Shown piece by piece: positions 9,294-10,915 of a stretch of DNA of 64,000 nucleotides; position 1 is the first letter of the stretch, and every line of letters begins with the position of its first letter. Location: NCBI GenBank assembly GCA_052386745.1, contig JBQTJW010000007.1, positions 117,998-181,997 on the forward strand. The letters are read 5' to 3'. A program made the translations under genes and the position numbers. This DNA is from Panacagrimonas sp. (GTDB taxonomy: Bacteria > Pseudomonadota > Gammaproteobacteria > Nevskiales > Nevskiaceae). The notes below the pieces were generated by a model, which saw only the letters and a program-made list of their open reading frames with translations, was not told the DNA's origin and did not search any database.

Positions 9294-10178
9294 ATGCCGC
9301 AGCTTCCCGATCCCGCCATGTCGGCCGCCGATCTCTCCATCACGCTCAGGGCACGCCGGCCGCTGTGCGTGCTCGACCCCGCACTGGCCTTTGCCCACCC
9401 GGCGGCCGTGCTGCTGGTGCGACGGCTGAGCGGCCTGCTCGACGTGTGCATGCCGCAGGCGTTCTTCCGCGTGCTCGACAGCAGCGACTACTACGGTCGC
9501 CAGCCCGCGCCGCTGCTCCAGTGGCTGGGACTCAAGGAGAGTGAAGCGGGCGGCCTGCGCCACACGCTCACCAGCTGGCAGCGCCTGCGCGGCGGTGGCG
9601 ACGTGCTGCGCGCGCCCTACTACTGGCTGGCCGACAGCCTGCCCGACTCGCGTCTGCCGCCCGGCGTGAGCGGCGACTTCGTGCGCCAGGCCGAGCTGCT
9701 CAACGCGGCGTTGCATCGTCACTGCGGCAGCCACGACACGCTTGCGGCGCAGGGCGAAAGTCTTGCGCAGGAATCGGCGCTGGATACCTTCACCCTGGCC
9801 AGCGCCCTGGACGGCGCCTTCGTGCTCACGCGCAACCTCGCCACCCGCTCCAGCCTGCACGGCCTGGGGCAGGAATGGGGATTTGCCTCCACCCAGCACC
9901 TGACCGCTTCGACCCCGCTCGACCCTTACGCCCGGCACGAACGCAGCTGGCTGCGCAGCCTGGTGGTGCAGAGCATGGCCAGCGCCACCCTGTGGCAGGG
10001 CTTGCAGCTGGCGGTGATGCACGTGCTCGCACCCTGCGCCAGCACGCTCGACTGCGGCAGTCCCGCGACGGATGGGGACGATCCTCTGGATGCGCCTCTG
10101 GCCGATGAAACGCTGTCGGCATCTCCCGCTCTGCCCGATCCCTGGGAAGGCACTCACCTCTGGTGGTACGCGCTATGA
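9294..10178 (+). CDS. hypothetical protein, possible degenerate PIN-like fold (start uncertain: 9270/9294/9318)
   Basis: N-terminal CVLDP strand and C-terminal DTFTLASALDGAFVLTRN resemble PIN motifs; stop overlaps next ATG (ATGA). Confidence 0.6.
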   Translation: MPQLPDPAMSAADLSITLRARRPLCVLDPALAFAHPAAVLLVRRLSGLLDVCMPQAFFRVLDSSDYYGRQPAPLLQWLGLKESEAGGLRHTLTSWQRLRGGGDVLRAPYYWLADSLPDSRLPPGVSGDFVRQAELLNAALHRHCGSHDTLAAQGESLAQESALDTFTLASALDGAFVLTRNLATRSSLHGLGQEWGFASTQHLTASTPLDPYARHERSWLRSLVVQSMASATLWQGLQLAVMHVLAPCASTLDCGSPATDGDDPLDAPLADETLSASPALPDPWEGTHLWWYAL

Positions 10179-10915
10179 ACGACGACGCCAAGCTGGATCA
10201 CGACGCCCCTTCCTGTGCCCCGGCCGGACCCCAAGCTGCCGAGGACCGCGACCAAGCCTCCGACGACGCCTTCGACGATGCCTTCGAGCGCGAAGTCATG
10301 GCCGACCTGGCGGGAGGCTTCGACCTCGCGGACCTGGACGGCGCCGACGAGGACGCGTTCGAGACCGGTCTGGACTCAACGCTCGACGCCTTGGTGGATG
10401 AGGATTTCGATGCCGCCATGCCCGCGCAGCTGCGGCTCAACCTGCAACGCGGGCGGCAGGCGGAGCGGCGGCTCGCGCAGCTCCTGCAACAGCGCGGGAT
10501 CAGTGCCCGGGCCCAGCAGTGGCTGGGACCCGGTGCACGGGCCGACCTGCTTCCGAATCCGCGCAGGCCCAGCGCCGGCGCCCCCAACTCGCGCCCCGTG
10601 CTGGAGAGCAAGCACATGGATCTCGGCCGCTACCGCACGCCGCCGGCGCAGGGCGGGAGCACGCTGGATGCCGCCCGCATCGGCAGCCGCATTCGCCAGC
10701 ATCTGCAACAGGCCTTGCGTTACCAGGCGCTGGCGCAGGCGCGTCAACCCGGGCGCCGGGTGACGCTGATGTACCAGCTCGGCAACGCCAGCGACGACGA
10801 GGCGCGCGCGTTCCGCACGCTGGCCCACGCGCTCGCTCGCGCGCACCGGCAACGCACGGGCCAGGCGGTTGCCATCGGCGTGGTACCGCCCAGCCGCGTG
10901 GCGAACCTGCCATGA
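10175..10915 (+). CDS. acidic-leader protein with putative PD-(D/E)xK nuclease domain
   Basis: GRQAE / RADLL / VLESK / QQALRY motif series after an ~85-aa D/E/F-rich leader; ATGA overlaps at both ends. Confidence 0.6.
   Translation: MNDDAKLDHDAPSCAPAGPQAAEDRDQASDDAFDDAFEREVMADLAGGFDLADLDGADEDAFETGLDSTLDALVDEDFDAAMPAQLRLNLQRGRQAERRLAQLLQQRGISARAQQWLGPGARADLLPNPRRPSAGAPNSRPVLESKHMDLGRYRTPPAQGGSTLDAARIGSRIRQHLQQALRYQALAQARQPGRRVTLMYQLGNASDDEARAFRTLAHALARAHRQRTGQAVAIGVVPPSRVANLP

Follow-up and report, generated by a model that had tools for sequence, protein, structure and literature searches.

The subject of this analysis is p246, a gene in a stretch of 64,000 nucleotides from Panacagrimonas sp. 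(GenBank assembly GCA_052386745.1, contig JBQTJW010000007.1, positions 117,998 to 181,997), the whole of which is here referred to as the window. The gene lies in an undescribed, cross-phylum operon (cyanobacteria to proteobacteria) that also encodes two lysine-free proteins, A and B. Its product of 246 amino acids (aa) combines an acidic N-terminal leader with a basic C-terminal domain, the latter having a net charge of +19 that comes nearly all from Arg. The start of the protein (MND...) agrees with that of its ortholog, P0002, and the gene is translationally coupled to its neighbours on both sides via ATGA overlaps. p246 itself has no RHS part, and no match to it was found in Pfam, NCBIfam, PADLOC or PHROGs. 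Its features are as follows (a slash within a sequence marks the boundary between leader and domain):

10175..10915, + strand: p246 gene, encoding a putative leader-tagged, toxin-like effector of 246 aa (list of open reading frames; ortholog P0002 in synteny at locus L002)
10175..10178, + strand: ATGA overlap of the stop of the upstream 302-aa gene with the start of p246 (sequence)
10912..10915, + strand: ATGA overlap of the start of the DUF4438 gene with the stop of p246 (sequence)
10175..10417, + strand: acidic leader, residues 1-81, 33% Asp plus Glu, net charge -24 (composition)
10265..10324, + strand: leader motif 1, residues 31-50, DAFDDAFEREVMADLAGGFD, an acidic amphipathic tag (resembling the N-termini of A and B and accessory enzymes elsewhere)
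10373..10423, + strand: leader motif 2 and junction, residues 67-83, DSTLDALVDEDFDAA/MP (junction pattern D-[YAW]-[ASGD])
10418..10912, + strand: basic C-terminal domain, probably a toxin domain, residues 82-246, with a predicted PD-(D/E)xK-like fold (HMMER family, AlphaFold2, Foldseek)
10544..10546, + strand: D124, invariant, in predicted strand beta2 (alignments and AlphaFold2)
10604..10612, + strand: E144-S145-K146, invariant ExK in predicted strand beta3, K146 being the sole Lys of the domain (alignments and AlphaFold2)
10709..10723, + strand: Q179 (invariant) to Y183 (Y or H in the family), on the helix after beta3 (alignments)

The C-terminal domain and its relatives

An exhaustive HMMER search of 1.84 billion representatives with a profile of the C-terminal domain retrieved 29 clusters at E<=1e-3. 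In the family members P0009, P0011, P0024, P0027 and P0030, the domain forms the extreme C-terminus, following the end of an RHS core (RYYxxWLGRWxxxDP...G.N.F.Y). P0024 additionally has TcdB_mid domains, P0009 is encoded behind SpvB/TcdB_midN genes, and two members have been named 'RHS repeat-associated protein' by JGI. The C-terminal domain of p246 is very probably a toxin module, one that elsewhere is the tip of RHS/Tc-type polymorphic toxins.

Alignments of 18-21 relatives (25-55% identity) show four residues without any substitution, namely D124, E144, K146 and Q179, and the Lys of the ExK motif is retained in all 29 representatives, so that the catalytic-type motif goes beyond chance. G93, Y153 and Y200 come close: each is fully conserved in one of the alignments and almost so in the rest. 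The first-pass annotation, made from the letters alone, had read here a nuclease motif of E, D, ExK and QxxxY, and the positions of these residues all agree with the sequence (GAG at 10463 encodes E97, GAC at 10544 D124, GAG-AGC-AAG at 10604-10612 E144-S-K146, and CAG...TAC at 10709-10723 Q179...Y183). The four invariant residues bear that motif out; the remainder of it has to be relaxed, as most relatives have Ala, Ser or Gln in place of E97, which does not characterise the family, and position 183 is either Y or H. Of the Q-x-x-x-Y that RecB-like nucleases carry on the helix following the ExK strand, the Q is thus constant and the Y is not, and further hallmarks of RecB or Cas4 were not seen.

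The sole ortholog obtained in a word-indexed search of 5.8 billion clusters is P0002 (234 aa, 47% identity), on whose contig the order p365, p302, toxin, DUF4438, GerE is found. The genes flanking it are 70-93% identical to their window counterparts, which indicates that p246 evolves faster than its neighbours. With a 21-sequence profile, the word-indexed search gave nothing beyond this ortholog, and when seeded with P0008 it gave 10 RHS-type relatives. The p246 gene was found in no other genome among 187 of the order and in no member of the plasmid collection, and two scans of metagenome contigs with domain alignments detected no relatives.

When 18 sequences were supplied, AlphaFold2 (AF2) modelled the domain at a predicted local distance difference test (pLDDT) score of 80-97, with the element order helix, three strands, helix, strand, helix, strand (helix 84-106; strands 110-118, 121-128 and 142-149; helix 166-190; strand 196-203). 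In this model D124 is placed in the 121-128 strand, E144 and K146 in the 142-149 strand, and Q179 on the next helix. The top Foldseek matches in the PDB were 4g6v_A (CdiA-CT 1026b, prob 0.96), XisH 2inb (prob 0.97) and 2okf (prob 0.90), while in BFVD a putative endodeoxyribonuclease I ranked second (prob 0.99, E 0.008) and lower matches were annotated as PD-(D/E)XK nuclease, ERCC4, DUF559 or restriction enzyme. The domain is very probably a toxin domain with the PD-(D/E)xK-like fold that had been proposed for it, and the invariant D124, E144-x-K146 and Q179 together with the predicted fold fit a metal-dependent PD-(D/E)xK nuclease.

Several results weigh against this assignment. A first AF2 model, based on 8 sequences, was of low confidence in its N-terminal half and first three strands, and Foldseek gave no meaningful match to it. 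The top PDB matches listed above have E values of 0.055-0.17 and template modelling (TM) scores of 0.57-0.66; in PDB and BFVD together, no Foldseek match reached E<0.001, and target-normalised TM scores were 0.47-0.66. No Pfam or NCBIfam model matches any family member, and comparison of the profile with PDB sequences was insignificant (best match Hjc, 1gef, E 0.82 over 25 residues). An hhalign comparison with ten cyanobacterial XisH sequences gave E 0.37 with the Q-helix alone aligned, and no profile-level link was obtained to any known restriction-endonuclease family. Because all structural matches are above E 0.001 and the XisH alignment is this weak, the restriction-endonuclease-like PD-(D/E)xK fold is regarded as likely but not proven.

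Three known groups invite comparison. CdiA-CT 1026b (4G6V) is the best PDB fold match, and it shares with the p246 domain an occurrence in polymorphic toxin repertoires; however, CdiA-CT toxins and p246 have no detectable sequence similarity, and CdiA serves as the delivery vehicle of CdiA-CTs, which are invariably accompanied by CdiI, in contrast to p246 with its acidic leader and missing immunity gene. 4G6V is a PD-(D/E)XK toxin cutting tRNA-Ala, and other CdiA-CTs of the same fold, such as TA271, are DNases (PMC9086364). Since the best structural match is a tRNase, the designation 'DNase' is not established for p246. XisH (PF08814; 2inb and 2okf, target-normalised TM 0.65-0.66) resembles p246 in fold and in the motif order D ... 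E-x-K ... Q-x-x-x-Y, but consists of cyanobacterial proteins of about 135 aa with no toxin context. Lastly, the Tox-REase domains, reportedly described by Zhang, Aravind and co-workers in 2012, are restriction-endonuclease-fold domains at the C-termini of RHS and related toxins. When the 21 family members were scanned individually against Pfam at E up to 10, no relevant match appeared and the Tox-REase models matched none of them, so the family looks unmodelled.

Operon setting and accessory slots

A p365 query against 185,579 species genomes gave 350 loci, and 80 of these were retained; operon counts refer to 83 related loci, and slot counts to the 71 loci with all three core genes. p365 is 68-85% identical in beta-, gamma- and alphaproteobacteria, cyanobacteria, Kuenenia, Armatimonadota and Desulfobacterales, and the conserved order is A/B, HExxH protein, p630, a variable part, p365, p302 and DUF4438, with a LuxR regulator close by. 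In the window, the operon consists of the following genes besides p246:

1917-2999 (A) and 3045-4055 (B), + strand: lysine-free proteins A and B, in which acidic and Arg-rich blocks alternate and DAA-x-P junctions occur
4123..5454, + strand: HExxH protein, a candidate processing peptidase (HEVAH motif; kept in 72 of 83 loci; no Pfam match)
5501-7393, 7419-8084, 8127-9224 and 9270-10178, + strand: core genes p630, p221, p365 and p302, respectively
10912..11919, + strand: DUF4438 protein, a relative of TM1086 (Pfam PF14505, PF20999; PDB 3dcl, 3n99)
12023..12409 (start approximate), + strand: solo LuxR/GerE helix-turn-helix regulator (Pfam GerE, 1e-17; beside the operon in 70 of 83 loci)

Among the operon proteins, only DUF4438 and GerE were matched in searches of Pfam, NCBIfam, PADLOC and PHROGs.

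A hidden Markov model of the toxin domain located p246-type genes in seven of the 83 loci in addition to the window, and these occupy two different slots. In four loci (L024, L039, L020 and L068) the gene sits between p365 and p302; in the other three (L002, L035 and L041) it sits, as in the window, between p302 and DUF4438. Inserts are present in three slots altogether, in 18, 9 and 5 of the 71 complete loci, and the other inserts include genes for Trypsin_2, Peptidase_M23 with PG_binding_1, or Aspzincin_M35 (weak, below the Pfam cut-off). Because these other hydrolases fill the same slots, p246 is to be seen as one of several interchangeable hydrolase-type accessories.

No immunity gene adjoins the toxin, and there is no room for one, as core genes abut the p246-type gene on both sides in all eight loci; directly after p246 a cognate immunity gene is absent, the gene overlapping the start codon of DUF4438. 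The remark of the first-pass annotation that no immunity gene was obvious therefore holds for the window and the seven related loci alike. The DUF4438 protein was considered as an immunity protein and rejected, since it is present in 76 of 83 loci regardless of the presence of a toxin. For the relatives outside the operon, no shared neighbour gene was found: the neighbours of P0032 and P0017 have no homology to each other, to the window or to the operon loci, and the P0009 contig ends at the gene.

The accessory proteins of other loci are diverse. Trypsin-like accessories are encoded in L025 (1248-2258), L044 (7531-8487), L006 (13205-14026), L081 (14066-14944) and L084 (13668-14534). L082 (12624-14015) encodes an M23 peptidase with PG_binding_1 that carries the same N-terminal acidic tag and in which no signal peptide was recognised, i.e., a cell-wall hydrolase made in a Gram-negative cytoplasm. 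A 185-aa slot protein in L022 (11242-11799) and L026 (9798-10355) has the tag followed by a stretch, 'ARNVRRRGRAAA', like helix 1 of the p246 family, and diverges thereafter (...GGHHVHQSASYG...); it may be a chimera or another kind of nuclease-like effector. Among the accessory families of Roseateles-type loci, the most frequent is a slot-1 protein of ~166 aa (MDASWDAAVIDDALADADAGIDAL...), found in L017, L019, L027, L034 and L036 (at about 11100-11600) with variants in L018, L043 and L085; the L034 member has no Pfam match. In L006 (12151-12840), DUF4438 is followed by a 229-aa protein that starts with MSYLSERLDALVEEAA, contains a Cys-rich stretch and has no Pfam match, and its 'YRITRAG...PLSIGMT' segment is reminiscent of GIY-YIG.

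Other observations concern the core and its surroundings. The DUF4438/TM1086 structures 3dcl and 3n99 contain 5 and 30 chains, respectively; as both numbers are divisible by five, the assembly may be built from pentamers. In the window, a resistance-nodulation-division (RND) efflux operon on the minus strand (12544-18360; outer-membrane factor, RND pump and membrane fusion protein) adjoins the LuxR gene, which in many other loci lies upstream of the operon instead. L007 (G346:C4:393000-411000) is a distant variant, with relatives of p365 and of the HExxH protein at 32% each; it is without p302 and DUF4438, its A-type proteins are Lys-rich rather than Arg-rich, and it encodes a 143-aa protein with an acidic N-terminus, adjoined on the opposite strand by a LAS-type (HxxxD...HxH) peptidase.

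Leader, junction and lysine avoidance

The leader of p246, whose gene occupies the slot between p302 and DUF4438, holds both motifs that recur in this system: FEREVMADL at residues 37-45, and FDAA/MP at residues 78-83, where the leader ends in ...LDALVDEDFDAA/MP (residues 70-83). Motif 1 resembles the N-termini of A and B (MDRFDTDVMDDL) and accessory enzymes of other loci. This acidic amphipathic motif heads A, B and accessory proteins of unrelated enzyme classes (MYERFQDEAFDALLEE, MDRLSAFVDEILADLED, MDRFDTDVMDDLMD); in p246 and its ortholog it is internal, about 30 residues in, and not at the very N-terminus. A regular expression for motif 1 matched 3.7% of non-core plus-strand open reading frames in operons, 0.9% outside them and 0.1-0.4% on the minus strand.

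The second motif is a junction, D-[Y/A/W]-[A/S/G/D], which immediately adjoins the enzyme domain on its N-terminal side in accessory proteins of the p246 and trypsin types. The p246 type has it in the form [FVW]D[YA]A..P.[LV]R.N, and each of the five trypsin-type proteins has DY[ASG] and then [VIL][IV]G[PT].D.R. The first-pass annotation had pointed to echoes of the p246 junction in protein B (DALVEEFDEEALDAA/AP, near 3582) and protein A (WFEEDGADAA/IP, near 2565). The letters are indeed there, and the motif recurs at the same place in unrelated operon accessory proteins of other genomes, so that the DAA/xP boundary is a real, recurrent junction; however, BLASTP of p246 against A and B gave nothing significant (E 0.35-1.7), and the echo is for this reason a short junction motif and not detectable homology. 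The creation of a new N-terminus by cleavage is the classical logic of S1 protease zymogen activation. Processing is plausible, and the leader is probably removed, mainly because cleavage of the trypsin-type proteins at their junction would give them an S1-like [VIL][IV]G[PT] N-terminus. The HExxH protein of the operon is the obvious candidate for leader cleavage.

In related toxins, the leaders comprise 27-105 residues. Two kinds of known systems bear some likeness to this arrangement. S1 protease zymogens and prolysostaphin (with a pro-region of acidic repeats) are propeptide-activated secreted hydrolases; p246-type proteins likewise have an acidic N-terminal extension ahead of a hydrolase, but no signal peptide, and one type of leader is found on several enzyme classes, a nuclease-like domain among them. 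The payloads of extracellular contractile injection systems and Photorhabdus virulence cassettes have a short, poorly structured N-terminal packaging leader on unrelated enzymes encoded beside the machinery. The short leader on unrelated enzymes is shared with the p246 operon, whereas sheath, tube and baseplate genes were not found in it with Pfam, NCBIfam and PHROGs. Because unrelated enzymes share the two-part leader, it looks like an address tag of the system or a propeptide, and a nuclease-specific DNA mimic is less likely.

Lysine is nearly absent from A, B, the HExxH protein, p302, p246 and most slot enzymes (0-2 Lys versus 20-57 Arg). p246 has two, K6 and K146, and in eight leader-bearing representatives the ExK Lys is the sole Lys of the domain, versus 17-26 Arg, while RHS-type family members have 9-23 Lys. 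Loci with a G+C content of 54-59% show the depletion too, as do accessories of the trypsin and M35 types. Lysine avoidance spans 1917-11919 of the window and extends to the accessory genes of L006, L020, L025, L039 and L044. In a maximum-likelihood tree, Lys-poor members (operon) and Lys-normal members (RHS and other) are split with support of 100/99. The retention of K146 under such strong avoidance argues strongly that this residue is functionally essential. Candidate causes of the avoidance are self-protection from a Lys-specific protease, escape from Lys-directed tagging, and Arg-aromatic binding.

The proposed role of p246 and its alternatives

It is considered moderately probable that p246 is an optional, horizontally shuffled effector of the operon, in which the acidic leader signature is joined to an RHS-type nuclease-like toxin domain and protection is provided by the pro-form. 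The data show directly that the domain belongs to the family, that its residues are conserved, that it is linked to RHS toxins and that the gene behaves as a slot insert; the recurring leader motifs, the scarcity of lysine and the absence of a neighbouring immunity gene are likewise observed. Beyond this, p246 would be made as an inactive or sequestered pro-form whose leader may serve mainly as a recognition tag of the system or as a propeptide. The leader would probably be removed at about A81/M82, most plausibly by the HExxH protein, and the freed C-terminal domain would then cut nucleic acid, be it DNA or tRNA/RNA. The producer would be guarded by the pro-form rather than by a dedicated immunity protein. 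Three further points detract from this account: the role as 'effector' is a contextual inference because more than half of the operons are without any accessory enzyme, the leader motifs were set by eye and with an ad hoc regular expression, and the split between Lys-poor and Lys-normal members in the tree may be inflated by composition.

An alternative that is rather unlikely, yet the strongest, is that the leader is never removed and acts purely as an address for export, packaging or recruitment, with protection arising from sequestration (e.g., on the Arg-rich A and B) or from the producer being free of the target. The occurrence of one N-terminal motif on unrelated enzymes and at the heads of A and B would be explained by such a tag, as would leaders that are acidic and aromatic, likely partners that are Arg-rich, and lysine that is avoided throughout. 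An unremoved tag fits less well with a junction placed directly ahead of the trypsin-like [VIL][IV]G[PT] start, which suggests cleavage, or with an HExxH protein that is a conserved core component; and no secretion or shell component was recognised with Pfam, NCBIfam, PADLOC or PHROGs.

It is unlikely that the long acidic leader inhibits the nuclease in cis by mimicking DNA, covering the DNA-binding surface until the leader is cut off at DAA/MP, a strict form of what the first-pass annotation had supposed. The opposite charges of leader and domain, which recur in the ortholog P0002 (-27 versus +15), are what such an inhibitor would show, and the missing immunity gene and the conserved junction motif at the boundary agree with it. 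High negative charge is, however, not conserved along with the toxin domain across the window and the seven loci: in contrast to L002 and the window, related leaders have net charges of -10 (L024), -9 (L020), -7 (L039), 0 (L035), +1 (L041) and +6 (L068), and the leaders of close relatives at -9 to +1, or +6 in one case, span just 27-59 residues. The same leader signature moreover precedes trypsin-like, M23 and M35-like enzymes, which are not DNA binders. In the AF2 model the leader has a pLDDT of 49-64, with weak helices at residues 32-46 and 66-81 and no confident docking, and the best structural match of the domain is a tRNase. The idea of a nuclease-specific cis-inhibitor is accordingly not upheld.

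Finally, it is improbable that the domain is no toxin here and is instead a housekeeping or regulatory nucleic-acid-binding or processing factor, or an inactive remnant, as the lack of an immunity gene and the translational coupling to core genes on both sides would allow, given that it is present in just about 10% of operons in slots shared with hydrolases, tips RHS/Tc toxins elsewhere, keeps its catalytic-type residues invariant (K146 despite lysine avoidance) and evolves faster than the flanking genes.

The account of p246 as an optional pro-effector can be extended, with considerable reserve, to the whole set of slot enzymes. p246 and the trypsin-like, M23 and M35-like enzymes might be interchangeable, immunity-free pro-effectors with a shared address or propeptide that is read, and probably cut, by the HExxH protein, lysine being shunned in concert with the Arg-rich A and B; they might together form a protease-triggered self-lysis or abortive module, or an undescribed route of delivery or packaging that has captured an RHS-type toxin domain.

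If the proposed role is correct, p246 would define an unmodelled and very rare toxin-domain family (29 representative clusters among the 1.84 billion searched) that RHS/Tc polymorphic toxins share with a genetic context of quite another kind. The near-total avoidance of lysine, from which the ExK lysine alone survives, amounts to a natural mutagenesis result for this family. A pro-form or tag would be a testable alternative to immunity proteins as a means of keeping a toxin harmless, and p246 would provide the first functional handle on a cross-phylum operon that appears to host interchangeable, leader-marked hydrolytic effectors.

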